Below the pieces are notes generated by a model. That model worked only from the letters and a program-made list of their open reading frames with translations, was not told where the DNA came from and made no database searches. From Chloroflexota bacterium (lineage in GTDB: Bacteria; Chloroflexota; Dehalococcoidia; DSGV01), in contig JAJYLG010000008.1 in NCBI GenBank assembly GCA_021787985.1, positions 2,821 to 66,820 on the forward strand: a DNA stretch of 64,000 nucleotides, read 5' to 3'. Position 1 is the first letter of the stretch; every line of letters begins with the position of its first letter. This document shows positions 2 through 55,025 of the stretch, in pieces. The position numbers and the translations under genes are program-made.

Positions 2-646
2 GCGGACCTCAAGTACGTGCGGGAGAAGGGCGACGAGCAGGACTTCTCCTATCTGCAGCCGGAAGGCAGGCAGCCGGACGCGGGATTCGGCACCAGCTTC
101 AAGGAGATCCTGGAGTACATCCACAGCACGATCTCGGAGATCAAGCGGGCCAACAAGCCGTTCATCGCCGCCGTGAAGGGGGTGGCCGCCGCCGGAGGGT
201 TCGGGCTGGCGATGGCGTGCGACCTCGTGTACGCGTCCGACGACGCCGCGTTCGAGTGGGCGTACCGCAAGACCGGCCTGACGGGCGCCGAGAGCTCGAC
301 CTTCTTTCTGCCGCGGCTCGTCGGCCTGCGCAAGGCCATGGAGCTCGTGCTGTTGAACCCCCGACTGACGGCGGCCCAGGCGCTGGAGCTCGGCCTGGTC
401 AACGCGGTCTTCTCTCGCGCGACCTTCGACGCCTCGGTGATGGCGGTAGCCGAGAAGCTGGCCGAGGGACCGACACGCGCGCTGGGCATCGCCAAGACCT
501 TGATCCACTCGGCGGTGGCCGGTGACCGCCTCGACTACCACCTGGACTTGGAGCTGGAGCACCTGGCCCGCATCGCGGAGACGAGGGAGTTCGCCGAGGG
601 GCTCGACGCGTTTCTCGAGAAGCGCGAGCCGAAGTTCGACAGCTAG
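2..646 (+). CDS. Enoyl-CoA hydratase/isomerase (crotonase) family protein, 5' partial; HypX-like Tyr/Glu signature
   Basis: The frame is open from the window edge (ADLKYVREK...). Crotonase motifs IAAVKGVAAAGGFGLAMACD, LPRLVG and C-terminal EGLDAFLEKREPKF are present. Confidence 0.85.
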   Translation, partial: ADLKYVREKGDEQDFSYLQPEGRQPDAGFGTSFKEILEYIHSTISEIKRANKPFIAAVKGVAAAGGFGLAMACDLVYASDDAAFEWAYRKTGLTGAESSTFFLPRLVGLRKAMELVLLNPRLTAAQALELGLVNAVFSRATFDASVMAVAEKLAEGPTRALGIAKTLIHSAVAGDRLDYHLDLELEHLARIAETREFAEGLDAFLEKREPKFDS

Positions 647-692: not shown

Positions 693-1787
693 ATGAAGCC
701 AGTGCGGCACGAGGCCGGGGGAAGCGAAAGCGGCGAGACACGGCAGCGAAGCCGGCTGTTTTTCGGCGACGAGCGAGTATCGATGGCGCACGGCAGCGGT
801 GGCCGGGCGAGCCACACGCTGGTCAACCGGCTCTTCCTCGAGCTCTTCCGCAATCCCCTGCTCGAGAAGCTGGATGACCAGGCCGTGTTCGCGCTGGACG
901 AGGACAGCGGTCCGCGACTCGCCCTCACCACCGATTCGTTCGTGATCCATCCGCTCTTCTTTCCGGGCGGCGACATCGGCAAGCTGGCGGTCCACGGCAC
1001 CATCAACGACCTCGCCATGTCCGGCGCACGTCCGCTGCACCTCTCGGCCGGCTTCATCCTCGAGGAGGGCTTGCCGCTCGGCGACCTGCAGCGCATCGCC
1101 GAGTCGATGGCCGAGGCCTGCGCCCGCTGCGGCGTGGCGATCGTGACCGGCGACACGAAAGTGGTGAACCGCGGCAAGGGCGATGGCGTCTTCATCAACA
1201 CGACGGGGATCGGAATCGTCCCAGATGGCGTGAGCATCTCCGCTTCCAACGCCCGGCCGGGTGACCGGGTGATCGTCAGCGGTCCCATCGGCGAGCACGG
1301 GGTCGCCATCATGATCGCCCGCGGTGGGCTGGACTTCGAGGCGGAGATCGCCAGCGACACGGCCGCGCTGCACTCGCTGGTGGGGACGATGCTCGCGGTG
1401 ACACCTCGCATCCACTGTTTGCGGGACCCGACGCGCGGCGGGGTGGCGACCGTGCTCAACGAGATCGCGGAGCGGTCGGAGGTAGGGATCGTCATCGACG
1501 AGGCCCGCGTCCCGGTCTCCGAGCCGGTCCGCAGCGCGTGCGAGGTGCTGGGCATCGACCCGCTCTACGTCGCCAACGAGGGCAAGCTGGTGGCGGTCGT
1601 GCCGGGCGACGTGGCCGAGGACGTCGTATCCGCCATGCGCCAATGCGATTGTGGGCTGGGACGGGAGGCAACCATCGTGGGTGAGGTGGTGGAAGAGCCG
1701 CGGCGGCGAGTGCTGCTGCGCACCGCGCTGGGGGGAACTCGCATCGTGGACATGCTCGTTGGCGACCCGCTCCCTCGCATCTGCTGA
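693..1787 (+). CDS. hypE: Hydrogenase maturation carbamoyl dehydratase HypE
   Basis: Motifs MAHGSGG, TTDSFVI.PLFFPGGDIGKLAVHGTINDL, GDTKVV and RDPTRGG, plus the diagnostic C-terminal PRIC. Start taken at ATG 693. Confidence 0.95.
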   Translation: MKPVRHEAGGSESGETRQRSRLFFGDERVSMAHGSGGRASHTLVNRLFLELFRNPLLEKLDDQAVFALDEDSGPRLALTTDSFVIHPLFFPGGDIGKLAVHGTINDLAMSGARPLHLSAGFILEEGLPLGDLQRIAESMAEACARCGVAIVTGDTKVVNRGKGDGVFINTTGIGIVPDGVSISASNARPGDRVIVSGPIGEHGVAIMIARGGLDFEAEIASDTAALHSLVGTMLAVTPRIHCLRDPTRGGVATVLNEIAERSEVGIVIDEARVPVSEPVRSACEVLGIDPLYVANEGKLVAVVPGDVAEDVVSAMRQCDCGLGREATIVGEVVEEPRRRVLLRTALGGTRIVDMLVGDPLPRIC

Positions 1788-1803
1788 TGGTGGTGCCCTT
1801 GCC

Positions 1804-2358
1804 GTGCTCAACGCATGTGGACCAGATGACCCTCGCGAGCCGCGGGTGCTCGTCGCCGGCATGGGGACCGTCCTGCGGAAGGACGACGGGTTCGGCGTGG
1901 CGGTGGTCCGTCACCTGATGGAGACCTGGCGGCCACGTCCCGCGAACGTCACGCTGGTCGACTGCGGGGCGGCTGGGATCAGCCTCGTGCAGGAGCTTCT
2001 GGACGGATACGACGCCCTGATCGTGGTGGACGCGGTGCGGCGCCACGGGCGTCCGGGAACGATCTACGTGCTGGAGCCGCGGGTCCAAGCGCTGATGGAG
2101 CGGGATGATTCCCTGCGCCAAGCGTCTCTCACGGACGCCCATCTGATGGAGCCGGGCCAGGTGTTCGCCGTCGCACACGGTCTGGGTGTGTTGCCGCCGT
2201 ACGTGCGCGTGGTGGGCTGCGAACCGGCCGAGGTCGATGAGGCCGAGATCGGCCTGTCGGCCAGCCTGCAGCACGCGCTCCGCCCGGCGGCGCACCGCGT
2301 CCGCGCGCTGGCGGAGGAGCTGGTCGCGCCGCCGCGGAGCGGTTCGTCCTCGGAGTAG
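1804..2358 (+). CDS. Hydrogenase maturation endopeptidase (HyaD/HybD family)
   Basis: RVLVAGMGTVLRKDDGFG, IVVDAV..G.PGTIY, DAH and VVGCEP motifs. The start (GTG 1804) is uncertain. Confidence 0.85.
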   Translation: MLNACGPDDPREPRVLVAGMGTVLRKDDGFGVAVVRHLMETWRPRPANVTLVDCGAAGISLVQELLDGYDALIVVDAVRRHGRPGTIYVLEPRVQALMERDDSLRQASLTDAHLMEPGQVFAVAHGLGVLPPYVRVVGCEPAEVDEAEIGLSASLQHALRPAAHRVRALAEELVAPPRSGSSSE

Positions 2359-2423: not shown

Positions 2424-2801
2424 CTAACGCCCGAGGTGCGAGGGACAGGGCTCGCCGGCGTGCGCGGGGTCATGGCACCAGCACCCCGGGATGCACTCGC
2501 CGTGCGCCAGCCGGGTCATGTCACGAAAGGTATCTCGGAAGCGCATCGCCCCCTCGCGCTCGCCGCGTTCGGTCAGTCGATAACGCTCGTCCTCGCGTTT
2601 CAGGTCACCCTCTCGGGCGAGGCGGTCCATCTGTGCCTCGACTACGGCGACGTCCCCGGCAAGGAAACCGGCCAGCCCCTGGGCGTTCACCTCGCTGGCA
2701 AGCCCCTCGCCGCGAAGCCAGTACATCGCTTCCAGGATCTCGTCCCGCCAGAACAGGTCGTCGAGCGCGCCGTTGTCGTGCATCCGGCGTTCGCTCCTCA
2801 C
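2424..2801 (-). CDS. Hydrogenase-associated winged-helix-like protein with a C-terminal His/Cys cluster
   Basis: Helical core (FWRDEILEAMYWLRGEG...YRLTERG) and tail HGECIPGCWCHDPAH...CPSH. It overlaps the stop of the upstream protease, consistent with coupling. Confidence 0.7.
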   Translation of the reverse strand: MRSERRMHDNGALDDLFWRDEILEAMYWLRGEGLASEVNAQGLAGFLAGDVAVVEAQMDRLAREGDLKREDERYRLTERGEREGAMRFRDTFRDMTRLAHGECIPGCWCHDPAHAGEPCPSHLGR

Positions 2802-3424
2802 GGAAGGGGCGCGCCGGCGCGGGCGCGCTCAACCAGATCGCGCACGACGATCTGCGCGCGTTGCAGCGCCGCCTCGGCCGCCCGGCTGAGATCCGGACCC
2901 CAGTGCTGATCGGAGGGCTGTACCTCGACCGTCAGGGTGCGCCGCGGGAGCGCGTCGAAATGGTCGAGGATCATCAGGAGGTTCTCGAGGCTCACGACGC
3001 CGGTGACCGCCTCGCCGATACGCCGCTGTAGCTCGTCCGCCGATGGACGCCTCCCCCGCCACGGAGCAACAGTCACCGTGCCGGGTTCGAGGCCCCGGTC
3101 GACCGCGGCGAGGAATACCCCCACGCTGAAGCGGGCGACAGCCTGCAACTGGAACAGGACGTCGATCGGGCCGTAGCTCAGGTCTGCCACGACCACCTCT
3201 GGAGGCCAGTCAAGCCGCTGCAAGCGCTCGATCAGCAATGGGCCCGCGGACATGTCACGCAGATTCGTGTAACCCACTCCGCCCACCAGCACTCGCCGCC
3301 CGTCCCCGCCGGAAGAGTCGGTCGCTGGCGGCAGCGAAGACACGTCCGGTGCGAGCGGCTCGCCCGGGCTGAGGATGGCCGCGAGCGGGTTGAAGGTGCG
3401 CTCGATACGTCCGGCGGAGGGCAT
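2798..3424 (-). CDS. Divergent hydrogenase maturation protease-like protein
   Basis: RVLVGGVGYTNLRDMSAGP, DLSYGPID and VEVQP are HyaD-like. ATG 3424 lies 4 nt after the large-subunit stop. Confidence 0.75.
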   Translation of the reverse strand: MPSAGRIERTFNPLAAILSPGEPLAPDVSSLPPATDSSGGDGRRVLVGGVGYTNLRDMSAGPLLIERLQRLDWPPEVVVADLSYGPIDVLFQLQAVARFSVGVFLAAVDRGLEPGTVTVAPWRGRRPSADELQRRIGEAVTGVVSLENLLMILDHFDALPRRTLTVEVQPSDQHWGPDLSRAAEAALQRAQIVVRDLVERARAGAPLP

Positions 3425-3428
3425 GTCC

Positions 3429-5303
3429 CTATTCTTCCTCCAAGAGGCAGGCGCAGGTGTTGACCTCGCGGACGATCGCCCTATCGCCGGCAAAGACGTG
3501 GGTGGTGCAGGGCATGCACGGGTCGAAGCTGCGGATGGCACGCAGGATGTCGATCCCCTTGAAATCCTCCTGGCGGTCGAACCGCTCGATGACCGGCGTG
3601 CTGAGCACCGCTTCCTCGTAGGGTCCCGGATTCCCCCAGGGGTCCCGCGGCGAGGCGTTCAGGGTGGACGGGGTGATGATCTGGTAGTTGGTCACCACTC
3701 CCTTGTCCATGACGAGATGGTGGGTGAGGTAGCCGCGGCCGGCGCCCCAGAATCCGGCGCCGAGCCGCTGGTCGTTGGGCACGCGGTAGTCACGGCTTAC
3801 GGCAACGTCGCCGCGCTTCATCAGATCGTACGCCGCCATGAGGTTGCTGAGCGCCACCAGTGCCGTGTAGGCCACGGCGTACGCCCGCGCGCGGTTGCGC
3901 TCGATGGCATTCCACTCGTCCGGGATGTGCCACTCGAGCTCCGTCTCCGGCAGCCTGCCCTTCGGCACGACCATCTTGAGACTGTGGCCGGTGGACTCGA
4001 TGAACGGGTTCGCCGGCAGTTTCTGAGCCGCGGCCGTGGTCCACATCCGCACGTACACGCCGGCCTCCACCGCCACCCGGTCCCAGCGCGGCGCCGTGTC
4101 CCAGGTGTACTTCTCCTTCCAGCTCCGGCCGACGGGCTTCGGTCGTGTCTCCTTGTTCCACGGATGGAACGGGCTGAGCGGGTATCCGGCGGGATCCGTC
4201 GGGAATTTCTGCCCGCTCCAGTCTTCGTAATAGGAGTGCTCGACGAACTCCTCGAGGCCCGCGTTCATGGCGTGAAGGTTCGTCGTGACCAGCTCGCCGT
4301 CGCGCACGACGCCGGGGGTGTTCCATCGTCGCTCACCCCACTGGGCCGCGTGTTCGTAGACCGCGTCGTATGCCTCGTGGTGGTCCCAGATCCCGGCGTC
4401 GATCAGGTTCTTCGGTCGTGCGCCCACCTGGCGAAAGCGCGGCTCGACCGCGTAGAGGAAGTCGTACACGTCGTCCCACAGGGGCGCGACCTTCTTGGCG
4501 TAGTCGAGGATGTCGAACAGGCGGGACTGGTACTCGTTGAAGACGCGAAACGATATTGTCGTGCTGATGCCGCCGGGCACGATCGTCTGGGGGTGTGGGT
4601 ACTTGCCCCACACCAGCACCGTCATCTCCCGGGCCTTACGCGTGATCTCGAGCGCTTCCAGGTATAGGGAGCCGCTCAGCGGGTTGAGCGCCGCCATGAT
4701 GTCACCGATCGTGCCGAATCCGTGCACGGCGGCGTGCGGCGCGGCGGTGTGCTCGGCGCGCTCCCAGATCTCGGGGTTAGTGGCGCGAATCGCGGACTCG
4801 GAGTAGTCCGGTCCGCCGAGCAGGAAGAGGTGCAACGGGTTGTCGTAGAGGAACTCGGCCGTCTGCCCGAGATTGCGCACGACGATGCCCATCGGCGGCG
4901 GCTGCACACCGAAGGCCATCTCGATCGCCTCTGCCGAGCAGTTGGCGTGGACCCCACCGCAGACGCCGCACGCGCGGCTGCTGATGAAGATCGCGTCCCG
5001 CGGATCGCGCCCCTTGAGGATGACCTCGTAGCCGCGGAATAGGGTCGCCATCGCGTGCGCGTCGAGCACACGGCCCTCGTTCAGGTCGACGACCGCGTGG
5101 AACGCCAGGGCGCCGGCCACGCGCGTCACCGGGTCGATGCTCACCTCCTGGATGTGGCCGTTGCGGCGCAGCAACTCCTCGATGCGTTCCTGCTGGGTCG
5201 CCACCGTTGTCGTCGCGCGAACTCCATATGGGTCGGCGACGTTGGCCTTGAGGCGTGCTCTGCCGGACTCGTCGAACTCAATCGGCAGGTTCTTGAAGCA
5301 CAT
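3429..5303 (-). CDS. hylL: [NiFe]-hydrogenase large subunit, group 1 (probably 1l/Hyl)
   Basis: L1 motif SRACGVCGGVH, L2 motif DPCMPCTTH followed by a cleavable C-terminal extension, and a GGAGGAG RBS. The subgroup and symbol are inferred from gene architecture. Confidence 0.9.
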   Translation of the reverse strand: MCFKNLPIEFDESGRARLKANVADPYGVRATTTVATQQERIEELLRRNGHIQEVSIDPVTRVAGALAFHAVVDLNEGRVLDAHAMATLFRGYEVILKGRDPRDAIFISSRACGVCGGVHANCSAEAIEMAFGVQPPPMGIVVRNLGQTAEFLYDNPLHLFLLGGPDYSESAIRATNPEIWERAEHTAAPHAAVHGFGTIGDIMAALNPLSGSLYLEALEITRKAREMTVLVWGKYPHPQTIVPGGISTTISFRVFNEYQSRLFDILDYAKKVAPLWDDVYDFLYAVEPRFRQVGARPKNLIDAGIWDHHEAYDAVYEHAAQWGERRWNTPGVVRDGELVTTNLHAMNAGLEEFVEHSYYEDWSGQKFPTDPAGYPLSPFHPWNKETRPKPVGRSWKEKYTWDTAPRWDRVAVEAGVYVRMWTTAAAQKLPANPFIESTGHSLKMVVPKGRLPETELEWHIPDEWNAIERNRARAYAVAYTALVALSNLMAAYDLMKRGDVAVSRDYRVPNDQRLGAGFWGAGRGYLTHHLVMDKGVVTNYQIITPSTLNASPRDPWGNPGPYEEAVLSTPVIERFDRQEDFKGIDILRAIRSFDPCMPCTTHVFAGDRAIVREVNTCACLLEEE

Positions 5304-5327: not shown

Positions 5328-5621
5328 CTAGGGGGCTGTTCGCCCGGGCGCACCAGGCGGCAAGCGGTTGTTCAGCGACCGCAGGTTGGCAGTCAGGCCG
5401 TCGGCGCCCGTCGCGAGCGCTTCCAAGCCGCGCCGGAGCGGCGGCACCTGCCCCTCGAGGAGAGCGGTCTGACGGTCGATAGCCGCGACCCCCCAGACGA
5501 TCTTCGCGGCGGTAAGGCGGATGCGCTCCAGGGAGCGCCGTATCCGGTTCAGGGCCAGCGCCAGCAGCGCGAGGAAGAGAAGGAGGAGCACGGCCGAGAG
5601 GATCGCCAGGATCACCGTCAT
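5328..5621 (-). CDS. Single-pass membrane protein with coiled-coil tail (HylTM-like #4)
   Basis: N-terminal hydrophobic helix (VILAILSAVLLLLFLALLALAL), amphipathic tail and RBS AGGTGG. The ATG overlaps the upstream stop. Confidence 0.75.
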   Translation of the reverse strand: MTVILAILSAVLLLLFLALLALALNRIRRSLERIRLTAAKIVWGVAAIDRQTALLEGQVPPLRRGLEALATGADGLTANLRSLNNRLPPGAPGRTAP

Positions 5622-5923
5622 CTTGTCCCACCTTCGTTCACCAGGCCCGCGGTTCTCAGCCTCGCGCCCAGGTCGACGGCGACCTGCGCGATTCCGTCCG
5701 CCCCGACGCCGAGCCGCTGGGCGGTGCTCGCCAGGGGGCCGAGCTCCGGGAGCGCGGCCGAGTTGCGGCCGATGCCCTCAATTGAACGGAGCGCCGTTCG
5801 AGCCTGCAGGTCGATGGCTCGCAGGTGCACGACGATTCGGGTCACCATCAGCACCGCCACCAGCGTCAGCGGGAGCGCGGCCAGCAGCGCCACGAGCCAG
5901 ACAATCGCCGCCGTTAGGTTCAT
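5618..5923 (-). CDS. Single-pass membrane protein (HylTM-like #3)
   Basis: N-terminal TM helix, L..I...A...L.SI.GI..N pattern and RBS GAGGAG. Confidence 0.75.
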   Translation of the reverse strand: MNLTAAIVWLVALLAALPLTLVAVLMVTRIVVHLRAIDLQARTALRSIEGIGRNSAALPELGPLASTAQRLGVGADGIAQVAVDLGARLRTAGLVNEGGTR

Positions 5924-5933
5924 ATGCCGCTCC

Positions 5934-6230
5934 TCACGCTGCCGCCGAGCGGCTGCTGCCGGCGGCGTCCGGCTCGCCGCCGAGATCTCCGGACGTGGCC
6001 TCGAGGTCGGAGGCTACGCGACCGAGGGCCGCGTTCACCTGCCCGAGCTGCTCGTTGAGAGGCCGCGTCACATCTTCGACCACCGCCATCAGGCGCGAGA
6101 TCCGGACGAACGAGTCGCCTACCCTGCGCAGGTAGACGAGGATCGTCACCAGGCTGACCGCAAGCACGAGCGCGACAACGACCGCGTACACGAGCGAGAT
6201 GATCTGGACTACGAGGATGAACGTGTCCAC
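5934..6230 (-). CDS. Single-pass membrane protein (HylTM-like #2)
   Basis: GTG start after GGAGG, a TM helix, then LRRVGDSF.RISRLM.VVEDVTRPL...LGQVN. Confidence 0.75.
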   Translation of the reverse strand: MDTFILVVQIISLVYAVVVALVLAVSLVTILVYLRRVGDSFVRISRLMAVVEDVTRPLNEQLGQVNAALGRVASDLEATSGDLGGEPDAAGSSRSAAA

Positions 6231-6242: not shown

Positions 6243-6539
6243 CTAGGACGGTCCCGGCCGCTGTGCCGCCAGCTTGTCATCGAGGGCGGCGGTCGCCGCG
6301 GCGATGGCAACCACCGCGGCGAGAATGCGGCCCGCGGTCTGATTCGTCTGCGCAAGGAGTGGGATGCTGGTCGTGTTCGACGCGATGCCCTTGCCAGCCT
6401 GCCACACCTCGAGGGCGTGGCGATCGATTCGCTCGGCCGCGCGCCAGATCGCGATCAGCAGCACGGCAACGACCAGCAGCACGACGACCGCGATGATGAG
6501 GATGATCCACCAGAACTGCGGGATGGTAGCGTCGGGCAT
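6243..6539 (-). CDS. Single-pass membrane protein (HylTM-like #1)
   Basis: RBS AGGAGG, TM helix FWWIILIIAVVVLLVVAVLLIAI, then RI...A.EVW..GKGIASNT. Confidence 0.75.
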   Translation of the reverse strand: MPDATIPQFWWIILIIAVVVLLVVAVLLIAIWRAAERIDRHALEVWQAGKGIASNTTSIPLLAQTNQTAGRILAAVVAIAAATAALDDKLAAQRPGPS

Positions 6540-6588: not shown

Positions 6589-7830
6589 CTACTCCGGCTT
6601 GGCGGCCGTGCCGTGACGCTGGCGCCGGTTGTAGAGGAACTCCAGCGTCCGGTCCACCACGGGCAGCTCGTACTCGGCGCCCCAGCCGCTGGGGATGCGC
6701 TTCTCCCGGTCCCAGCGGGTCGAGTGATTGCGGTCTCGCTGGGTCACTCTGCGAAGCGCGCGCACCAGCGCCCCGCCGGTCTTCGAGATGCTGCTGGACA
6801 CGAGGACGCCCGGTGCAGCCTTGTAGAAGGGCGCGAACTTGTCCGGGAAGCCCGGCATGGTGCAGCCGATGCAGACGCCCCCCGCGTGCATGCAGCCGCC
6901 GACGCCGTTGATGGCGCCTCGTGAGGTGATGTTGCAGTTCACCACGGGGCCCCAGCAGCCGATCTCGACCAGGCACTCGCGGTCGCCGGGGGAGTCGGCG
7001 AAGGTGCCCTCCTCGTAGTAGCCCGCGCGATTGCACTGGCGGTGGACCGTCTCGCTGAAGAGCCAGGCTGGTCGTCCCAGCTCGTCGAACTCCGGCACCG
7101 GTCCGAGGCCCTGCAAGAACAGCAGCACGGCGGCGACCGTCTCCGTGAAGTTGTCTCCGACCGGCGCGCAGCCCGGGATGTTGACGACCGGCAGGCCGAG
7201 CGCGCTGCGATACTCGGGTCCCAAGAAGTCCATCACACCCATCGCGCCCGTGGGATTGTGGTAGGCGGCGGGGATGCCGCCCCACGTGGCGCAGGTGCCG
7301 ATGGCGATGACCGCCGCCGCGCCCGGGGCCATGCGCTTGAGCCACGTCGCCGACGGCACGGCGCGGGCTTCACCTCGTGCCTCGTCGAGCTCCTCGCCCA
7401 CCGCCGACCAGTAGCCCTCACCGGCTCGCGCCTCGTCGGCAACCGAACCCTCGTAGACGACTACATAGGGGACGCCCAGCGTGCCTTCCGCCGCGCTGCG
7501 TGCGGCCCGCATGAACGGCTCGCCTGCCTCGACGTTGATCGCCGTGTGATGGAGGAAAACCTGCGGCAGCCCCGGCAACGTGCCCAGCAGCAGGTCCTCG
7601 ACGCGCGGCGCGGTCGCCCCGAGGACCGCGATGCTGCATCCGTCGCAGCTCATCCCCGCCAGCCAGAAAACGTGGACGGCGGTGTACGGACCGAGCAGGC
7701 TATCCTTGCCAAGCCGCTCCCGCGCCTGCCGCGCGATCTCCTCGGTGGTCGCGCCGGCAATGTTGCCGACCATCCCCATGCCGCGGCCCGGTGCGACCCC
7801 GACGGACGGTTTCTCCGTGGTCACCATCAC
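6589..7830 (-). CDS. hylS: [NiFe]-hydrogenase small subunit without a Tat signal
   Basis: Fe-S ligand motifs SCDGCS, GTCATWGG, PGCAP, HRQC, CL..IGC.GP..NC and GGC...GGVCIGC..PGFPD. RBS GAGGAGG. No RRxFLK motif. Confidence 0.9.
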   Translation of the reverse strand: MMVTTEKPSVGVAPGRGMGMVGNIAGATTEEIARQARERLGKDSLLGPYTAVHVFWLAGMSCDGCSIAVLGATAPRVEDLLLGTLPGLPQVFLHHTAINVEAGEPFMRAARSAAEGTLGVPYVVVYEGSVADEARAGEGYWSAVGEELDEARGEARAVPSATWLKRMAPGAAAVIAIGTCATWGGIPAAYHNPTGAMGVMDFLGPEYRSALGLPVVNIPGCAPVGDNFTETVAAVLLFLQGLGPVPEFDELGRPAWLFSETVHRQCNRAGYYEEGTFADSPGDRECLVEIGCWGPVVNCNITSRGAINGVGGCMHAGGVCIGCTMPGFPDKFAPFYKAAPGVLVSSSISKTGGALVRALRRVTQRDRNHSTRWDREKRIPSGWGAEYELPVVDRTLEFLYNRRQRHGTAAKPE

Positions 7831-7857
7831 CCGTGCTCCTCCTCCCCCCGCCGGCCG

Positions 7858-8643
7858 TCAGCGCGCGACTTCGCGCGTCAGCGTCTCGACCAGCGCGCCG
7901 ATAGCCCGCACCGCCGGCGCCGACGGCCGATAGTCAATCGCCGATCGATTCTCCCGATCGGCATCTTGAACGGACTCATCGAACGGGACCACCCCCGCCA
8001 CCGCCACGCCAAGGCGCTGGCTGTACTCGCGGATGGCGGCCTCGTCCCGTGGCGAACGGACCTTGTTCGCGACCGCGTGAACGCGAGGGAGACCCAGCCC
8101 GCGCGCCAGCGGCACCGTTCGCCCCATCGTCTCCAGCGCTCGGTAGTAGGGCTCCGTCACCACCAGCAGCGTGTCCACGTTGCGCACGGTGCCACGGCTG
8201 AGGTGCTCGATGGACGCTTCCATGTCGAGGATCGTCACCTCGTTGCGCGACGAGGACGGCAGCTCCGCGATCACGCCACGCACCGTGGCGTGCTGTCCGC
8301 ACAGTCAGCCCTTGCCCGCGCCCAGGAGGCCGGTCATAGAGAGCACTCGCATCCCGGCAGGACCGACCACGCCGTACTCCGACACGATCTCGTCGAAGGG
8401 ACGCCGCAGCCGCAGGCTGGCCCGCCCTTCTTCGTCTACCAGCTCGTCGAATATCGCTTCTCGGGGGACGCGGCGCAGCGCGCTGATCTGTTCTGGCGCC
8501 AAGCCGAGGGCCGCCGCCAGATTCGGATTCGGGTCATCGTCGAGGGCGTTGACGCGGTAGCCACGTTCGGCGAACACGCGCGCCATCGTGGCCGCCACCG
8601 TCGTCTTGCCGGCGCCGCCCTTCCCCGCGACGGCGATTCTCAC
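7858..8643 (-). CDS. cooC: CooC/AcsF-type Ni-insertion ATPase with in-frame UGA (predicted selenocysteine, U113-L-C115)
   Basis: The two ORF-track pieces (8305-8745 and 7858-8283) are one reading frame separated only by TGA 8305-8307. Motifs GKGGAGKTT, DDDPNPNL and DMEASIEHLSRGT are present. GTG start at 8643 follows GGGAGG, giving 261 codons. Confidence 0.85.
8272..8307 (-). other. Candidate bacterial SECIS element
   Basis: UGA, then 12 nt, then the perfect hairpin CACGCCACG-GUG-CGUGGCGUG (8272-8292). The apical loop starts with G about 20 nt after the UGA. Confidence 0.65.
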
Positions 8644-8817
8644 GCCCCGCTCTCCCTCCCAGCACGGCGAGCGATCATCGCTCCGGCCATGCGCTGGCGT
8701 GCGAGCGGCTCTCCCTCCGCTCCACCCTTCGCCCGGGTAGTCCACGGCCGCCCCGCACGCTGGGCGGTCAGGCGGCCGATGAGATGGACAACCGGGCGCC
8801 TCCCTCGGGATGCTCGC

Positions 8818-8846
8818 ATGTTAGTGCGGGATTTCCCATATTTCAA
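8818..8846 (-). promoter_or_regulatory. Sigma70-type promoter for the cooC-hydrogenase operon
   Basis: TTGAAA (8841-8846), 17-nt spacer, TAACAT (8818-8823), in a locally AT-richer patch. Confidence 0.6.
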
Positions 8847-8929: not shown

Positions 8930-10615
8930 TCAGCTTGCACCGCGGATTTGCGTTCCCACCGGCTGTCCCGTCACGAAGACTTGCTTGAAGCAGCCGTTCG
9001 TGCCGCTGCCGTACCAGCCATGGGCGAAGTACCAGGCATCCAGCACCGCCGCACGGTAGATCCAGTAGCCCGTCGGATAGTACAGGTCGATCGTGGGCAG
9101 GTCTTGGGCGAGGATGACCTGCATCCGGTCGACGATGGCCTTGCGCGCGGCCTCGTCGATGGTCGAGAGCTGCTGCGCGGCAAGGCTGTCGAACGTCGGA
9201 TTGGCGTAGCCGTGGACCCGGGTGAAGCTCTTGCTCTTGCTGTGACTGTCGAACTTCGCGCGCAGGCCATCGGGGTCGCCTCCCAGCCCGCCGAAGCCGA
9301 CCAGCGCAAGGTCGTAGCGACCCTGGGCCGCCGCGCTGTCGCGCGCTTGCCCGTCCATGACCTGCGGCGTGACCTGGATCCCGGCCGCTTTCAGGTAGGA
9401 CTGGAGCAGCTCGGCAACACGGATCGGATCGCTGTTGGCCAGGATCAGTGGGAAGCGCAGCGGGGTGCCCGTCGCGGTCTCCCGGACTCCATCGTGGTCG
9501 CGGTCGAGATAGCCGGCGTCGTCGAGGAGCCGCTGCGCCTTTGCCGTATCGAATGGGTACTGTGGCACCCGGGGGTTATGCCAGGGGCTGGTCGGCGCGA
9601 CCTGGCCGGGATTCCCGACCACCCCCTGGCCCTGGAGGAAGCGCGCGACCAGGTCGTCCAAGTTCAACGCGTAGCCGACCGCCTGCCGGAATCGGACGTC
9701 GGCCAGCGGACCGCCCTTCGCCATGTTGAAGAACAGCGCGAACGTCCATTCCAATGGCGAGCTGATTGTCTTGAATCTGTTGTCTCGCTTAAACGAATCG
9801 AGGACGCCCGGCGGGGCCGCCTGGTTGAACCCGAGGCCGCCGGCGTCGATCCCACCCTGCTGCAGCGCCAGCAGCTCGTTGGGGGCGGGCACCTGTTCGA
9901 TCCGCCGCACGTAGGGACGGCCGAGGAAGAAGCTATCGTTCGCTTCGAACAGATAGCTGCCCTGTGCTTCGTTGTACTGCTGCAGGCGATATGGCCCGGT
10001 TCCGACCGTGGCGCTCGGTGCGTCGAACTTGGTCGGGTCACTGACCGGTTCCCAGACGTGCCTGGGCAGGATGAACACCGACGTGGCGATCGACGGGATC
10101 AACGGCGCGTAGGGCTCCTTGAGGCGCAATCGGATCGAGGTCTCCGTCACCTTCTCGGCACCCGCGACCACCTGCAGGCTAGACGCCCACCATGGGGTCG
10201 GGTGCGCAGCCAGGTACTCGAAGGTGAAAACCACGTCGTCGGCCGTGAACGGTTGGCCGTCCTGCCACTTCACATCCGGGCGGAGGCTGAAGGTCCAGGC
10301 GCGCCCTCCCTGCTCCGGCGCCCAACTGGTCGCGAGCCACGGTATGACTCCGCGCGAGTCGTGCCACGCGAGGGTGTCGAAGACGTAGCTCGTGTTCACG
10401 TGTCCCGGACCGCGCGAGAACATGAACGGCGTGGGTCGCCCGTAGTCCCCGCCCGCCAGTCGCACTGTCGGCCGAGGGGCGGCCGTCGCGGTCGCGGTCA
10501 CGGCCTGCTGTGCCCCGCCGCTGCACGCATTGAGCAGCCAGGGGGCGGCGGCGACGATCCCGCCGGCGCCGGCCGCCCGCAACAATGCTCGCCTGGTCAG
10601 ACCTCGACTCGCCAT
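8930..10615 (-). CDS. ABC transporter substrate-binding protein, family 5 (Opp/Dpp/Nik), Tat lipoprotein
   Basis: TRRALL twin-arginine motif, lipobox LNAC, and LRPDVKWQDGQPFTADDVVFTF and VGTGPY family 5 motifs. Confidence 0.88.
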   Translation of the reverse strand: MASRGLTRRALLRAAGAGGIVAAAPWLLNACSGGAQQAVTATATAAPRPTVRLAGGDYGRPTPFMFSRGPGHVNTSYVFDTLAWHDSRGVIPWLATSWAPEQGGRAWTFSLRPDVKWQDGQPFTADDVVFTFEYLAAHPTPWWASSLQVVAGAEKVTETSIRLRLKEPYAPLIPSIATSVFILPRHVWEPVSDPTKFDAPSATVGTGPYRLQQYNEAQGSYLFEANDSFFLGRPYVRRIEQVPAPNELLALQQGGIDAGGLGFNQAAPPGVLDSFKRDNRFKTISSPLEWTFALFFNMAKGGPLADVRFRQAVGYALNLDDLVARFLQGQGVVGNPGQVAPTSPWHNPRVPQYPFDTAKAQRLLDDAGYLDRDHDGVRETATGTPLRFPLILANSDPIRVAELLQSYLKAAGIQVTPQVMDGQARDSAAAQGRYDLALVGFGGLGGDPDGLRAKFDSHSKSKSFTRVHGYANPTFDSLAAQQLSTIDEAARKAIVDRMQVILAQDLPTIDLYYPTGYWIYRAAVLDAWYFAHGWYGSGTNGCFKQVFVTGQPVGTQIRGAS

Positions 10616-10697
10616 GCCCCCTCGCCTCCGATCGCTCTTCCCATCGCGGAACCAGTCCGTCCGGCTCGATGCCCGAGCCGCCGGCGGATTCGCGCGC

Positions 10698-12620
10698 CTA
10701 CTCTTCCGCCGCCGCACCCGCCTGGATCTCGCGCCCCGAACCGGGCGGCTTCCAAGCAGGCAAACGGTCGTCCGCCGCCTCAGCCTCGACTGTCTCTGGG
10801 GCCGCGCGACCGTTCGCGCGCAACGCTTGGGACCTGGCGCCGGCAGCCGCGACGAGCAGCCGCCGCGTGTAGGGATGCCGCGGCTCGCTCACCACTTGCT
10901 CCGAGGGCCCGGCCTCCACGATCCGTCCGTGCTCCATGACGATCACGCGGTCGGCGACTTTACGGACCAGGGGTAGGTCGTGGGAGACGAGCAGGAGCGC
11001 GGTGCCGTGGTCGTTCTGGAGGTCCTTGAGCAGGCGCAACACGCGGGCTTGCTCGCTCGGGTCGAGCATCGAGGTCGGTTCGTCCGCCACGATGACCTTG
11101 GGGCGTACGACCAGGGCCCGCGCGATGGCAATGCGCTGCAACTGACCGCCTGACAGCTCGTGCACGCGCTTGGCCAGGAACTCCCGCGTCGTGGGCAGCC
11201 GGGCGGCGGCCAGCGCTGCCCGCGCCGTCTCGTCTCGTTCCGCGCGGTTCCCGATCCGCTGGATGTCGAGCGGCTCCCGCACCAGCTCGAGCGCAGTGAG
11301 GCGTGGGCTCAACGCCTCGTACGGGTCCTGGAAGATGAACTGCAGGAGTCGGCGCGCGGCTCTGCGCGCCTCCCCTCTCAGCGAATGGAGCGGCTGGCCC
11401 TGCAACTGCACGTCGCCCCGGTCCGGTTCGAGGAGGCCCACGATCATCCTGGCGAGCGTGGTCTTCCCGCTTCCCGTCTGGCCAACGACCGCGACCACCT
11501 CGCCCTCGCCCAGATGGAGGCTCGCGTCCTGCACGGCCTGCACCGGTGGGCCCGGGCCGTCGCGGAACGTCTTGCTGAGTCGCCGCGCCTCCAGCAGCAG
11601 GCGAAGACCGCCCAGGTGGCAGGCAACCAGCCGGTCGAGCTGGGGCATGAGCGCCGGGATCTCGGCCTGGCAGCGATCGATGGTTTGCGTGCAGCGCGGC
11701 GCGAACGCACAACCGGAAGGAGGGCACATGGGGTCGGGCGCTTCGCCGCGGATTCCCCAGAGGTCCTTCGAGCGCGTCATGGTGGGGTAGGCGTTGACCA
11801 GACCCCAGGTGTACGGATGGCGCGGGCTTTCGATCACGTCGTGAGCCTCGCCGACCTCCACTGCCCGTCCCGCGTAGAGCACGAGCGCGCGCTGCGCCAG
11901 TTGGCGCACGTCGTCGGGGTTGTGGGAGATCACCAGCATCGCGAGGTCGTGCTCCGCGTGCAGCCGCCGCAGAAGGTCGAGGATCGCCACGCGGGTAAAG
12001 GAGTCGAGGCCGCTGGTCGGCTCGTCGAGGATGAGAAGCGCCGGGGCGCCGGCGAGGGCCATCGCCAGCATGGCGCGCCTCTTCTCGCCTCCGCTGAGCT
12101 GATGGGGATAGTGGCCGAAGCGCTGGGCTGGCAGGCCGACCTCATCCCACGCGCGGAGCGCGCGCTCGCGAGCCGCGTCGCGGCGCAGACCGCGCCGCTC
12201 TTGGAGTGGCTCGATCAACTGGTCGCCTACCCGCTGTACCGGATCGAAGCCAGTGCCGCTCGCCTGCGCGACCAGCGCGATCTGCGACCAGCGGAATCGG
12301 TTCATGGCGCGGTCGTCGCGGAGCGGCAGTGGCGTCCCGCCGAATTCGACGACTCCCTCAACCTCCGCCGTGGGCACGAGGCCCAGCAGGGCAAGCGCCA
12401 GCGTGGTCTTGCCTGAACCCGATTCGCCGATGACTCCAAGGGTGTCGCCACGGCCGAGCTCGAACGTGACCCCGCGGAGCGCCGGGAGCATGAGGTCATT
12501 CGGCAGGCGGTAGCGCACGCTCAGCTCGCGAACCGCGAGCAACGACCGGTGCGCGACGGCGCCGTCCGTCGAGGGTCGCTCAGGCCCGCGTTTGCAGTCG
12601 GTCGACTCGTGCGTTTCCAT
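10698..12620 (-). CDS. Fused dual-domain ABC ATPase (OppD/OppF-like)
   Basis: Two Walker A motifs (GESGSGKT, GQTGSGKT), two LSGG signatures and a PSGC.F.PRC...ACH Cys motif. The start is uncertain. Confidence 0.88.
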   Translation of the reverse strand: METHESTDCKRGPERPSTDGAVAHRSLLAVRELSVRYRLPNDLMLPALRGVTFELGRGDTLGVIGESGSGKTTLALALLGLVPTAEVEGVVEFGGTPLPLRDDRAMNRFRWSQIALVAQASGTGFDPVQRVGDQLIEPLQERRGLRRDAARERALRAWDEVGLPAQRFGHYPHQLSGGEKRRAMLAMALAGAPALLILDEPTSGLDSFTRVAILDLLRRLHAEHDLAMLVISHNPDDVRQLAQRALVLYAGRAVEVGEAHDVIESPRHPYTWGLVNAYPTMTRSKDLWGIRGEAPDPMCPPSGCAFAPRCTQTIDRCQAEIPALMPQLDRLVACHLGGLRLLLEARRLSKTFRDGPGPPVQAVQDASLHLGEGEVVAVVGQTGSGKTTLARMIVGLLEPDRGDVQLQGQPLHSLRGEARRAARRLLQFIFQDPYEALSPRLTALELVREPLDIQRIGNRAERDETARAALAAARLPTTREFLAKRVHELSGGQLQRIAIARALVVRPKVIVADEPTSMLDPSEQARVLRLLKDLQNDHGTALLLVSHDLPLVRKVADRVIVMEHGRIVEAGPSEQVVSEPRHPYTRRLLVAAAGARSQALRANGRAAPETVEAEAADDRLPAWKPPGSGREIQAGAAAEE

Positions 12621-13464
12621 AGCGCTCCAGCGCGGTGCCCCACAGCGTGAACCCCACGACGAGCAGCGAGATGCAGGCTCCGGCGGGGAGGGCCCACCAC
12701 AACCAATAAGGCGTGAGGTAGATCCCGTCGAAGTTCAGCGCTGCACGGAGGACCCCTCCCCAGCTCTTGAGGGTCGGGTCGCCCAGGCCGAGAAAAGCCA
12801 GCCCGGCCTCCATCATCACGGCCCGTCCGGCCAGCGACACGAACGCGGCCGCGGCGACGGGCGTGACCGCCGGCAGCAGGTGGCGGCGCATCAGGTAGAA
12901 GTGGCTGCCTCCCAACAGGCGCGCGGACTTGACGTGAGCGCGCTCGCGCAAGGTCAGGACCTGGGCGCGGATCACCCGTGCGGGCCCGGCCCACATTACC
13001 AGCACGACCACCAGGATCACGCTGTTGAGCCCCGGCCCGAGAAAGGCGGCCAGGACGATCATCAGCGGAAGGTGCGGCACGGCCATGAAGACGTCCACGA
13101 CGCGCATCAGCAACGCGTCGAACCAACCGCCGACGGTCGCCGCGCTAACGCCGACGAGCAGCGCGAGCGCCAGGCTCAAGCCGGCTCCCAGGAGTGCGAC
13201 CGTCAAGGAGACGCGAGCGCCATAGATGAGCTCGCTCAGGATGTCCTGGCCGACATCGTTCGTGCCGAGCAGATACGCGCCGGTCGGGCGCAGCAGTGGC
13301 GCGGCGACGTACGCGGTCGGATGGTACGGCGCGACCAGTGGCGCGAGGACGGCCGTGGCCGCGAACCCGGCCACGATGCCGGCACCCAGCCACGCCGCGC
13401 TCAGGCGCAGCCGTCGTCGGGAGACGAGGGCGGGGCGTGGCAGCGGCGTCGCGAGGGAGCTCAT
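12580..13464 (-). CDS. ABC permease (OppC/DppC/NikC-like)
   Basis: LLGTNDVGQDILSELIYGARVSL, EAA-loop region and LAFLGLGDP...SWG. Confidence 0.9.
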   Translation of the reverse strand: MSSLATPLPRPALVSRRRLRLSAAWLGAGIVAGFAATAVLAPLVAPYHPTAYVAAPLLRPTGAYLLGTNDVGQDILSELIYGARVSLTVALLGAGLSLALALLVGVSAATVGGWFDALLMRVVDVFMAVPHLPLMIVLAAFLGPGLNSVILVVVLVMWAGPARVIRAQVLTLRERAHVKSARLLGGSHFYLMRRHLLPAVTPVAAAAFVSLAGRAVMMEAGLAFLGLGDPTLKSWGGVLRAALNFDGIYLTPYWLWWALPAGACISLLVVGFTLWGTALERYGNARVDRLQTRA

Positions 13465-14492
13465 CGGGTCCTCACGCGCGGGTCAAGCCGGGCATAGGCC
13501 AGGTCGGCGATCAAGTTGGCGGTGAGCACCGACACCGTGAAGACGAGGAAGACTCCCTGCAGCACGGGATAGTCCCGAGCGGAGACCGCCTGAAACGCCA
13601 GCGTGCCCATGCCGGGATAGGCGAACACCGCTTCGACGAAGATGGAGCCGGTCACGGCGAAACCGAGCTGGATCGAGAGCACGGTGACGAAGGGGAGCAG
13701 CGCGTTGCGCAAGGCATGACGGTACTTCAGGCTGCGGTCGGACAATCCTTTTGCCTTGGCCACGAGCATGAAATCGTCGCCCAGCACGGAGATGACGCTG
13801 TTGCGCATCAAGAGGAACTGGCCGCCCAGCATCTCGATCGTCAAGACCAGCGCCGGCAACGCCCAGTGGTGGAGCAGGTCGGCCAGCGCGCCCCACGGTG
13901 AGCGGTAGTGGGCGAACGGCGTCTGGGCGCCGGCGAGCGGGAACCAGCCGAGCCGGACGCTGAACAGCAGCAAGGCGAGCACGCCGAGGAAGAAAGCCGG
14001 GAGGGTCCGAATGCCGGCGAAGAGGACGATCAGGCCGCGGTCCAGCGGCGAGCCGCGATGCCAACCGGCGTGCAGGCCGGCGACCATGCTGACCAGTGAC
14101 GCCGCGAGCATGGCCGGGAAGATGAGCAGGACGGTCCAGAGGATGCGGTGCTGGATGAGCAGGCTCACGGGCGCATTCAGGCGAATGGACCAGCCGAGGT
14201 CCCCCGTGGCCAGGCCACGGAGGTACCTCCCGTATTGCACGATCAGCGACTGATCGAGCCCATAGTAGTGCGAGAGCGCGGCGCGGCTGGCCTGATCGCT
14301 GACGTAGAGGCTGCTCTCCGGGTCCTGCAACGCCGTGATCGGGTCTCCCGGCATCATCCGTGGCAAGGCGAAGTTCAGCGTGATGACGGCGAACAGCGTC
14401 AGCACGAAGGCCGCGCAGCGTCCGGCCAACCAGCGGGGAGGGCCGGTACGCTGCCACCGCATCCGTCGTGCCGCCCGTGCCACGGCTAGCAT
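13461..14492 (-). CDS. ABC permease (OppB/DppB/NikB-like)
   Basis: RMMPGDP, GLDQSLIVQYGRYL..L..GDLGWS, AKAKGLS and RDYPVLQG. Confidence 0.9.
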   Translation of the reverse strand: MLAVARAARRMRWQRTGPPRWLAGRCAAFVLTLFAVITLNFALPRMMPGDPITALQDPESSLYVSDQASRAALSHYYGLDQSLIVQYGRYLRGLATGDLGWSIRLNAPVSLLIQHRILWTVLLIFPAMLAASLVSMVAGLHAGWHRGSPLDRGLIVLFAGIRTLPAFFLGVLALLLFSVRLGWFPLAGAQTPFAHYRSPWGALADLLHHWALPALVLTIEMLGGQFLLMRNSVISVLGDDFMLVAKAKGLSDRSLKYRHALRNALLPFVTVLSIQLGFAVTGSIFVEAVFAYPGMGTLAFQAVSARDYPVLQGVFLVFTVSVLTANLIADLAYARLDPRVRTR

Positions 14493-14564: not shown

Positions 14565-15191
14565 CTAGAGCCGTCGCGGCCAGCGAGAGTCCAGCCGTTC
14601 GAAGCACGGGATGCACAGCATCTGTCCGCGGAAGCGTCGCAGGCGCGTCTCCATCGTCATCTCTCCGCATCGCTCGCACGGGACGGACTCGTGGACGCGC
14701 GCGTGCGCCGGCACAACGGGCTCTGCCGCGCGGACCGCGTACAGCCGTTCCTCCGGAGCGTCCAGGACGGCTTGCGCTCGCTGCTGGTGGAGCGCCTGGA
14801 ACCGCGCTCGCTGCTCGGGTGTCGCCTCGCCGGCTCGCACCTTCGCGAACAGCGCGGACCATTCCGGGTCCGCCGGAAGCGCCTGTGGCAGGCTTACCAG
14901 CCGGATCGCCTTGCCATCGCTGCGGCGGATGAACGTGTAGGCGTTCTTGCCGTGATCCAGGTGGATCAGGTTGCCCTTGCCGAACGTGCAGCCGGTGAGG
15001 TACTGGATGGCGTCCACGGCGCACATGTCGGTCTCGACGACCGCCACCACCTCCTCGTCCGACGAGTGGGACCCGATCTCGCGCAAGGCGATCTGCGCGG
15101 CGCGGATACCGAGCGCCAAACCGGGGCACATGTGCCCGTGGAACCGGACGACCTCCGCGACCGCCGACGGGGCGTCGATTGCTCCCGCCAT
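14565..15191 (-). CDS. FmdE/FwdE-family protein with a C-terminal zinc finger
   Basis: FHGHMCPGLALG, VETDMCAVDAIQ..TGCTFGKGNL and C..CGE...E......LCIPC. ATG 15191 follows GGAGGAG. Confidence 0.88.
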   Translation of the reverse strand: MAGAIDAPSAVAEVVRFHGHMCPGLALGIRAAQIALREIGSHSSDEEVVAVVETDMCAVDAIQYLTGCTFGKGNLIHLDHGKNAYTFIRRSDGKAIRLVSLPQALPADPEWSALFAKVRAGEATPEQRARFQALHQQRAQAVLDAPEERLYAVRAAEPVVPAHARVHESVPCERCGEMTMETRLRRFRGQMLCIPCFERLDSRWPRRL

Positions 15192-15237
15192 CGCTCTCCT
15201 CCTCCCGCTCCCGCCGTCTTCCCCAGCGGGTCGACCG

Positions 15238-15537
15238 TCAGGCCGCGCAGTTGCAGTCGCCGCAGGCGCAGCGACCGTGGAAGAGCTCCCGCTCGAGCCT
15301 GGCCACGTCACGCAGCCTCTTGAGCTCCTCAGGTGCGAGCGCCGCCACAAGCGCCGGCACCAGGAGCAACAGGTCGACGAGGTGGGCGAAGTCGGGGCGG
15401 GCACCGCCCCACTCCCAGAGCGATATGGCCGACTGGTCAACGCCGACCATCCGCGCGAGCTCCGCCTGCGTCCAGCCGTGGGTGGCGCGCGCGGCGCGGA
15501 TCGCCGTCGCCAGGTCCGCTGTCTGCTGCGACATCAC
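15238..15537 (-). CDS. XRE-family HTH transcriptional regulator with a Cys-rich C-terminal tail
   Basis: IRAAR..HGWTQAELARMVGVDQSAISLWE.G..RP HTH. The protein ends in HGRCACGDCNCAA. Confidence 0.85.
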   Translation of the reverse strand: MMSQQTADLATAIRAARATHGWTQAELARMVGVDQSAISLWEWGGARPDFAHLVDLLLLVPALVAALAPEELKRLRDVARLERELFHGRCACGDCNCAA

Positions 15538-40107: not shown

Positions 40108-40338
40108 CGTCCTCGTCCCTTCAGCCGTAGCGATTAGTATGCGCAGCGATGACAGCAACGGCAACTGGTGTCCTCAGTGCAACTGAGTAGCGCGCGCGCT
40201 GCCTGGCCAAGTGGCGTCGGTTCGGCCACGGCTGGTCCGGGGTGACGCCGCGGGGCTCGGATCGGGGCACCGGTCGGAGGCGGCCGCGGCTTCCCGGCCA
40301 CGCGCGGCGAACGCAAGCGCGCCCTTCCTGACGCCATA

Positions 40339-40367
40339 TTGACGGTAGACGACCGAAAGGCCATACT
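40339..40367 (+). promoter_or_regulatory. Sigma70-type promoter upstream of the large surface protein
   Basis: TTGACG (40339-40344), 17-nt spacer, CATACT (40362-40367). Confidence 0.55.
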
Positions 40368-40469
40368 ACCGCCAATTGTGTGCCGTTGCCCGTTGGCGGA
40401 CGATTTCGACTGCGGAAGGCTGATGCGGCGGCTCGAGTCCCATCGCCGGAGATAGGAGGGCGGTACCCG

Positions 40470-44264: not shown

Positions 44265-44294
44265 GAGGGGAAGGACAGCCGTGGAGGAGATCTC

Positions 44295-49742: not shown

Positions 49743-49747
49743 GCGGT

Positions 49748-51415: not shown

Positions 51416-51421
51416 TCGTCG

Positions 51422-54977: not shown

Positions 54978-55025
54978 GGTGGGCGTGACCTCCGTGATAT
55001 TGGGCAGGATGAGTGTGGGGAGCCG

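Follow-up and report, generated by a model that had tools for sequence, protein, structure and literature searches.

A probable selenoprotein of the CooC type, and putative nickel chaperone for a [NiFe]-hydrogenase, in a Chloroflexota bacterium

In the 64,000-nucleotide (nt) stretch of Chloroflexota DNA considered here, which is called the window below (contig JAJYLG010000008.1, positions 2,821 to 66,820), a gene for a P-loop ATPase adjoins the genes of a [NiFe]-hydrogenase and is interrupted by an in-frame TGA; the question raised by this locus is whether that codon ends translation, is an error, or is recoded, and, if the latter, which residue is inserted and what the protein does. Taken as a whole, the analysis makes it probable that 7858-8643 on the minus strand encodes a CooC-type nickel chaperone which contains selenocysteine and serves hydrogenase maturation. 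The parts of this reading are of unequal strength: the UGA at codon 113 is very likely recoded, which would give one full-length protein of 261 residues; it is highly probable that the residue inserted there is selenocysteine (Sec, written U in protein sequences) specifically; and a role of the ATPase in providing nickel for hydrogenase is somewhat favored by its homologs and neighbors. The two features on which the argument turns are these:

7858..8643, minus strand: gene for a CooC-type (MinD/SIMIBI class) P-loop ATPase, 261 codons, GTG start, TGA stop.

8305..8307, minus strand: in-frame TGA, the proposed Sec codon, codon 113; the plus strand reads 'tca'.

Translated with TGA as U, 7858-8643 gives 261 residues followed by the terminal TGA, with one internal TGA only, in the context L-L-G-A-G-K-G-U-L-C-G-Q-H-A-T-V-R-G-V. 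The two open reading frames (ORFs) of the standard gene call under translation table 11, 8305-8745 and 7858-8283, share one frame, and the start of the ATPase agrees with the MRIAVAGKGG start of 118 database relatives. An initial annotation of this DNA had placed a single 261-codon frame here with the TGA at codon 113; its coordinates are correct, and the strand, which it left unstated, is minus. Its expectation that pipelines would call two genes is borne out as well; the standard caller splits the gene and the relatives are cut at the TGA. TGA is an ordinary stop codon of this genome and also terminates the ATPase gene itself. The base call at the internal TGA is reproducible, because a separate assembly of the source run (a mine drainage metagenome) in Logan shows no difference over 7800-8700 at a word depth of ~12; this assembly was probably built from the same reads as that of the window. 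The nearest named relatives of the GatB encoded in the window are from Dehalococcoidia and Chloroflexi metagenome-assembled genomes (MAGs) and share just 64-70% identity with it; the host thus counts among the poorly sampled Chloroflexota.

The codon is not peculiar to this organism. A search with the first 112 residues matched 348 database clusters, the best 120 of which (65-76% identity) were examined; 118 of these are exactly 112 amino acids (aa) long and end with G-A-G-[KRQ]-G, and gene callers therefore cut them at the same codon. Where contigs were fetched for such 112-aa entries and read at this position, four of four have TGA (loci L001-L003 and L164), and wherever the contig is long enough, the reading frame goes on to complete a full-length protein. 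Scans of contigs from one genome per species and of metagenome contigs returned at least 163 loci (species counts are lower bounds), the window's own genome not being among them. With a first family of these proteins (family 1) defined by the motif G-[U/C]-x-C-x-x-H, the U113 column holds TGA in 78, TGC in 51 and TGT in 11 of the 140 family-1 genes among the loci listed, and TAA or TAG in none. The MAGs carrying TGA forms are labeled as belonging to at least seven phyla (Chloroflexota, Actinomycetota, Acidobacteriota, Rokubacteria, Dormibacterota, SAR324, and Verrucomicrobiota), with finer labels including Thermomicrobiales, Ktedonobacterales, Limnocylindria, Chloroflexia, Rubrobacteraceae, and several Acidobacteriota. 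Cysteine and TGA alternate at the column and both flanks are conserved; a TGA that is erroneous or confined to one strain, named in the initial annotation as what would undo its proposal, is not what is seen, as hundreds of entries end at the same codon. Two codons past the TGA, a cysteine is invariant in 74/74 TGA forms, as is the histidine that follows (x-C-x-x-H); translation must therefore pass through the TGA.

The half of the gene behind the TGA behaves like the half before it. Compared with ten members of its clade (eight TGA forms and two Cys forms), the window's protein shows 58-74% identity before the TGA and 55-68% after; in the same ten comparisons the nonsynonymous divergence (dN) is 0.2-0.4 in both halves and the synonymous divergence (dS) is saturated, so that dN lies far below dS. 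By these measures, the half after the TGA is intact and evolves under purifying selection. In a maximum-likelihood tree of 158 proteins, the window falls into a well-supported clade of nine TGA and three Cys forms, which is nested in a larger clade of 34 TGA and seven Cys forms, and family 1 requires at least 7-10 switches between Sec and Cys. The TGA state is thus old, widespread and repeatedly swapped with Cys, the classical behavior of a Sec/Cys pair.

Some loci hold more than one such gene. In L008, L011, L019, L097, L104, L107, and L119, two nearby family-1 genes lie upstream of one hydrogenase; typically, such a tandem pair comprises one TGA and one Cys form (for example, H-G-G-x-G-C-L-C-G-E-H-I-T-V-R-D beside H-A-G-K-G-U-L-C-S-T-H-A-T-V-R-G), and in the tree these Cys copies group in a clade that is sister to that of the TGA copies. 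A second family of CooC-like paralogs (family 2), with the motif P-G-[U/C]-x-[U/C]-C-G and mostly from Actinomycetota, is found in L045, L064, L067, L068, L070, L071, L074, L088, L100, L139, and L147. It often has two in-frame TGAs two codons apart (U-P-U-C, U-L-U-C), the codon pairs among the loci listed being TGA-TGA in 11, Cys-TGA in seven and Cys-Cys in ten, and its genes often share hydrogenase neighborhoods with family-1 genes. The cultured Blastococcus saxobsidens DSM 44509 (NZ_POQT01000006.1; L075:6001-6740) has TAG at the family-2 TGA/TGC position (G-C-P-TAG-C-G) in a frame otherwise intact to a full-length protein; this TAG may denote a pseudogene or a sequencing problem.

If the UGA is recoded as Sec, a signal in the mRNA would be expected, and a hairpin resembling a selenocysteine insertion sequence (SECIS) follows the codon closely:

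8272..8292, minus strand: SECIS-like hairpin CACGCCACG-GUG-CGUGGCGUG, with a perfect stem of 9 bp and the loop GUG; it begins 12 nt past the UGA.

The hairpin is found in both the minimum-free-energy and the centroid fold of a 141-nt context. Since folding energy is uninformative at 70% G+C, the hairpin was tested by comparison among relatives, for which 74 TGA forms and 61 Cys forms could be aligned without gaps, there being no insertions or deletions between TGA and hairpin. At least six of the eight outer pairs are kept in 60/73 TGA forms versus 14/61 Cys forms, and 77.3% of the cells are paired in TGA forms versus 53% in Cys forms; the observed pairing was matched in none of 500 shuffles for the TGA forms and in 339 of 500 for the Cys forms. 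Cells changed on both sides of the stem number 69 in TGA forms (shuffle mean 23, with none of 500 shuffles reaching the observed covariation) and 28 in Cys forms (24), the covariation of the latter being no better than in shuffles, and when the register is slid by 1-3 columns only 22-48% of the cells in TGA forms are paired. The compensatory sets cross the borders of codons and amino acids: Ala-GCC with Gly-GGC, Ala-GCU with Ser-AGC, Ala-GCG with Arg-CGC, and further Thr-ACC with Gly-GGU and Ser-UCC with Gly-GGG. In a few of the TGA forms that depart from the fixed register, an equivalent hairpin has moved by 1-3 nt, as judged by eye. The first two bases of the loop, G and U, are invariant in TGA forms, but at the same time they open a conserved Val codon; a bulged U or a conserved lower stem was not found in the hairpin, and a longer two-helix structure was rejected as a conserved feature, its lower stem being paired in 55% of the cells. 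In bacterial SECIS elements, the apical loop lies roughly 16-37 nt from the UGA and starts with G. Both the position of the hairpin here (~21 nt from UGA to loop) and its small loop starting with G fit that pattern. A search for a SECIS-type element, which had been proposed with the initial annotation, thus ends with a hairpin 3′ of the TGA whose covariation is confined to TGA forms.

As to the nature of the protein, Pfam gives matches to P-loop families of the CbiA/ParA/NifH type, and no model of NCBIfam (release 20) scores above its cut-off, that collection having no dedicated model for the family. Among proteins of known structure, CooC1 of Carboxydothermus hydrogenoformans (3kje) is by far the top match in phmmer (E 1.1e-29, residues 2-224); in this alignment, U113 pairs with Cys112 and C115 with Cys114 of the CooC1 sequence 'GGSQCYC'. 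The proposed position of the UGA on the first metal ligand is therefore upheld, and the assignment to the CooC type holds both by sequence and by fold: the AlphaFold2 model of the ATPase, built on 55 Cys homologs (mean predicted local distance difference test 91, predicted template modeling score 0.90), is closest to 3kje in a Foldseek search of the PDB (E 2e-15, TM 0.73-0.75), followed by FleN, MinD, FlhG, and NifH. Confidence in the model is reduced solely in residues 101-120, the loop that bears U-x-C. The deviant Walker A motif GKGGAGKT occupies residues 7-14 and is invariant in two family alignments, and all 120 full-length homologs retrieved with the read-through protein have G-C-[IL]-C at the metal site. 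Weaker database matches include the SIMIBI ATPases Mrp/NBP35 and NifH-like proteins; neither Pfam nor NCBIfam finds a CobW/HypB/UreG (G3E GTPase) domain in the ATPase.

What such an ATPase might serve is suggested by the genes around it, which are, in order of coordinates:

2-646, plus strand: crotonase/enoyl-CoA hydratase-family gene, just upstream of hypE; converges on the hydrogenase operon.

About 774-1787, plus strand: HypE (NCBIfam TIGR02124, 462 bits vs cut-off 252).

About 1849-2358, plus strand: HupD-type hydrogenase maturation protease (TIGR00072, 106 bits vs cut-off 47).

3429..5303, minus strand: [NiFe]-hydrogenase large subunit (Pfam NiFeSe_Hases, E 1e-72).

6243-6539, 5934-6230, 5618-5923, and 5328-5621, minus strand: four consecutive paralogous HylTM-like ORFs (97-101 aa), whose translations all have a hydrophobic stretch at the N-terminus.

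6589..7830, minus strand: [NiFe]-hydrogenase small subunit (Pfam Oxidored_q6 and NiFe_hyd_SSU_C; NCBIfam models below their cut-offs).

8818..8846, minus strand: sigma-70-like promoter match TTGAAA-17-TAACAT, a consensus match only (1 site vs 0.1 expected).

8930..14492, minus strand: Nik/Opp-type ABC importer, made up of two permeases, one fused double ATPase and one family-5 solute-binding protein.

14565-15440, minus strand: FmdE-domain protein with a C-terminal DksA/TraR-type zinc finger, heading the Nik-like ABC operon; no NCBIfam match.

The small subunit gene begins 27 nt past the stop codon of the ATPase gene, and the genes for HypE and the HupD-type protease (774..2358) converge on the hydrogenase operon from the other strand. 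The large subunit ends in the motif DPCMPC, with Cys, and the hydrogenase itself is therefore not a [NiFeSe] enzyme; from the gene order of its cluster it appears to be group 1l-like. Directly downstream of the large subunit, 2424-3428 (minus strand) has no Pfam or NCBIfam match; in L001, the corresponding place is taken by two ORFs (209 and 123 aa) that carry no annotation. On the other side, the fused ATPase of the importer scores above the NCBIfam cut-offs for nikD and nikE, while its binding protein and permeases match the NikA/B/C models below their cut-offs, and the promoter match sits in the 286-nt gap between this ABC operon and the ATPase gene. The idea that the ATPase gene heads a [NiFe]-hydrogenase operon stands in part: the hydrogenase context is real and recurrent, but the same strand carries, immediately upstream, the Nik-like ABC operon.

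Where at least 1.5 kb of flank follows the gene in a TGA-form locus, the small subunit is encoded directly downstream on the same strand in 26 of 46 cases, and other TGA-form loci adjoin genes for the large subunit (HylL), HupD, HypE, or HypD; the linkage of the family to hydrogenase genes evidently recurs in relatives from at least seven phyla. The neighborhoods annotated with Pfam (L001, L165, L166, and L167) show the same hydrogenase setting. In three of them (L001, L166, and L167), the arrangement of four short ORFs is found as well, and in L165 and L167 family-5/Nik-type ABC genes stand beside the Sec-CooC gene. Between the latter and the hydrogenase, L167 has a TrmO_N-domain gene (L167:8404-8925) and L165 extra genes for HycI-like proteases (L165:11035-12580); module content around the chaperone therefore varies. 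HypA or HypB is not annotated in any of these four neighborhoods; motif regular expressions run over 165 loci found HypD in 27 and HypA/HypB in none, which, as they had no positive control, is a hint only. No cooS- or acsB-like gene was seen in the 64-kb window. The ATPase would work like CooC, yet it is not a maturation factor of CO dehydrogenase (CODH) in the strict sense, because its neighbors are [NiFe]-hydrogenase genes and the window has no cooS/acsB.

A sequence of events can be proposed from these similarities. During translation, the hairpin, which lies within the coding sequence 12 nt past the UGA, would recruit a SelB-type factor loaded with Sec-tRNA(Sec); this would be an ordinary bacterial SECIS layout. 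The finished protein would, by analogy with CooC1, bind ATP at the deviant Walker A motif GKGGAGKT and form a homodimer, to which each subunit would contribute its U113-x-C115 loop; one four-coordinate Ni(II) site made of two selenolates and two thiolates would thus arise at the interface. Hydrolysis of ATP would then release the metal to the client. Nickel may accordingly travel from the Nik-type ABC importer through the Sec-CooC chaperone to the hydrogenase large subunit, client and supply route being proposed because the importer is encoded upstream and the genes of a group 1l-like, O2-tolerant [NiFe]-hydrogenase immediately downstream; nickel as the metal and hydrogenase as the client are inferred from homology and gene neighborhood. 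As reasons for the use of selenium, one may reasonably think of a lower pKa, of ligand exchange that is faster and, in aerobes, of an easier recovery from oxidation. A coupling of hydrogenase expression to selenium supply through termination at the UGA, as had also been considered in the initial annotation, is possible and pure speculation.

Several observations weigh against this reading. Rfam, ARAGORN, and profile searches found no selA, selB, selC, or selD in the 64-kb window (Rfam and ARAGORN returned one tRNA-Leu and nothing else), nor is there a second gene in the window that spans a TGA. The folding energy of the hairpin is ordinary for a sequence of 70% G+C (z about -0.4), the hairpin is short with conservation limited to its upper stem, and its loop G-U and part of the stem overlap the conserved codons for H-A-x-V-R-G; protein constraint contributes to the pattern, although the Cys-form control argues that it is not the whole cause. 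The case for nickel and hydrogenase is one of homology and synteny, and the absence of HypA/HypB was judged by uncontrolled regular expressions and few annotated loci; these genes may lie elsewhere in the genome. Among the candidates for Sec machinery, the AIR-synthase-like gene at 504-1787 was considered as SelD and rejected, for it is HypE; likewise, the same-frame ORF pairs split by a TGA at 49541-52261 (plus strand), 54333-55493 (minus strand), and 40332-44642 (plus strand) are ordinary adjacent genes in which no Pfam domain spans the TGA. A tRNA-Sec was not found in any of the fetched loci either.

How else might the TGA be explained? A nonsense mutation or a sequencing or assembly error, with a pseudogene in this strain, would need one base change from TGC to TGA and would account for the fragments of the standard gene call; with an identical Logan assembly at a depth of ~12, the same TGA in 78 related genes (among the loci listed) from at least seven phyla, an intact downstream half under purifying selection and a hairpin specific to TGA forms, this explanation is effectively refuted. 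Were the TGA instead a true conserved stop, two separate polypeptides would be made, the N-terminal half with the P-loop and the C-terminal half, whose translation would restart at the GTG at 8283, in a split gene or by programmed termination and reinitiation; such a GTG does exist eight codons past the TGA (ORF 7858-8283), and callers annotate two ORFs in all relatives. A true stop, however, would sometimes be TAA or TAG, which is seen in 0/78; the codons between TGA and restart are conserved as protein (x-C-x-x-H, Cys 74/74), the break would hit a metal ligand exactly and destroy the motif, and Cys forms in the same clades are single proteins, all of which renders a split gene very improbable.

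If translation does pass through the UGA, the residue inserted could still be another one: near-cognate suppression, stimulated by the hairpin, might place Cys or Trp there, or tRNA(Sec) might deliver Cys under selenium shortage. Readthrough can generally be stimulated by a hairpin downstream; here, however, distance and loop of the hairpin (~21 nt from UGA to loop, a small loop starting with G) fit a bacterial SECIS, the UGA always replaces Cys, which is the signature of Sec/Cys pairs, and TGA serves as an ordinary stop in this genome, the end of the ATPase gene included. Insertion of a residue other than Sec is thus improbable. A larger share of the doubt concerns function: the protein may be a selenoprotein that handles an Fe-S, Zn, or Co center, gates the adjacent ABC importer, or serves a Ni-CODH encoded elsewhere. 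Its SIMIBI relatives Mrp/NBP35 and NifH-like proteins, which handle Fe-S clusters, are among the weaker matches, and the presence of HypE and the protease indicates that the conventional Hyp pathway exists at least partly; on the other side, CooC1 is the best match in sequence and fold with its metal motif in register, hydrogenase genes (the small subunit directly downstream in 26/46 informative TGA-form loci, HylL, HupD, HypE, or HypD near others) recur beside the gene, and the window has no gene resembling cooS or acsB. Such another role is therefore considered unlikely, and a Sec-containing nickel chaperone for hydrogenase stays the preferred reading.

The family, which is widespread and belongs to soil bacteria, seems to have escaped earlier surveys. 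The family table of a 2026 review of the prokaryotic selenoproteome (PMC13188914) has no CooC-, MinD-, ParA-, CbiA-, or P-loop-type ATPase, its sole 'ATPase' being a P-type cation pump and its sole 'CO dehydrogenase' entry HgcA; such an ATPase is not mentioned in the main text of the BSepDB paper, and a full-text literature search for CooC together with selenocysteine or selenoprotein gave nothing relevant. Within the literature searched, neither the selenoprotein family nor such an accessory factor of aerobic hydrogenases has been described, the mechanism and the fold being of known kinds. The family is missed when hydrogenase accessory genes or the use of selenium are surveyed, because pipelines split or truncate the genes (118 of the best 120). 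If the reading is true, a widespread family is added to the bacterial selenoproteome, selenium is assigned to a nickel chaperone instead of a redox enzyme, and there is a candidate for a missing maturation factor of the soil hydrogenases that consume atmospheric H2. A broader conjecture would be that, in many aerobic soil bacteria, nickel is inserted into the high-affinity, O2-tolerant group 1l/1h hydrogenases by a dedicated selenolate CooC-type ATPase supplied by an adjacent Nik-type importer, without HypA/HypB; in that case the supply of selenium would govern the capacity for atmospheric H2 oxidation, and Sec as a ligand would have been adopted as an adaptation to the handling of nickel where oxygen is present. 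This generalization is tentative and, for the time being, doubtful.

It remains to compare the system with known ones. CooC1 (PDB 3KJE/3KJG/3KJH/3KJI) is an ATPase that delivers nickel to CO dehydrogenase, its Cys-x-Cys motif chelating the metal at the dimer interface (PMC3792862). The ATPase described here shares with it the GKGGxGKT Walker A motif and the register of Cys112-x-Cys114 with U113-x-C115 and, by analogy, the metal site at the dimer interface and the ATP-driven dimerization should be shared as well (PMC3792862); it differs in that identity is about 28%, that the first ligand is encoded by UGA (and would be Sec), and that the partners are a [NiFe]-hydrogenase and a Nik-type importer, not cooS/acs. 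The canonical HypB and UreG proteins are also nucleotide-dependent homodimers which have Cys ligands at the interface and hand nickel to a client (PMC3792862), but as G3E GTPases they belong to another NTPase family. Clusters of group 1l hydrogenases, for which oxidation of atmospheric H2 has been proposed and which occur in aerobic soil-type bacteria, have short transmembrane ORFs between HylS and HylL as their hallmark, and here, too, the subunit genes are parted by such ORFs; there are four of them, in contrast to the five published for Hymenobacter roseosalivarius, and the published descriptions consulted mention neither a CooC-like gene nor selenocysteine.

Two further systems provide precedents for the proposed mechanism. 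The ATPase-type HypB of Thermococcus kodakarensis (PDB 3VX3, 5AUN-5AUQ), which belongs to the Mrp/MinD family, acts in nickel insertion into [NiFe]-hydrogenase (PMC7055735); it shows that a MinD-class ATPase, instead of the usual G3E GTPase, can have this task, and it is among the PDB matches of the ATPase (3vx3, E 3e-6), although the similarity is confined to the P-loop region (residues 4-52). No nickel site is reported for it (PMC7055735), whereas the ATPase here has the CooC-type U-x-C site and no HypA was seen nearby. In [NiFeSe]-hydrogenases, selenium coordinates nickel directly (PMC13188914), and like these enzymes and the predicted Sec-containing metal-handling proteins (CopZ-like, YHS-domain, and P-type ATPase; PMC13188914), the present family would have Sec in place of a Cys that binds a soft metal; unlike in [NiFeSe]-hydrogenases, the selenium would reside in an accessory chaperone, the hydrogenase being a Cys enzyme (DPCMPC). 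Because of these two precedents, the T. kodakarensis HypB for nickel insertion and the [NiFeSe]-hydrogenases for selenium at nickel, the mechanism proposed for the Sec-CooC protein appears plausible.

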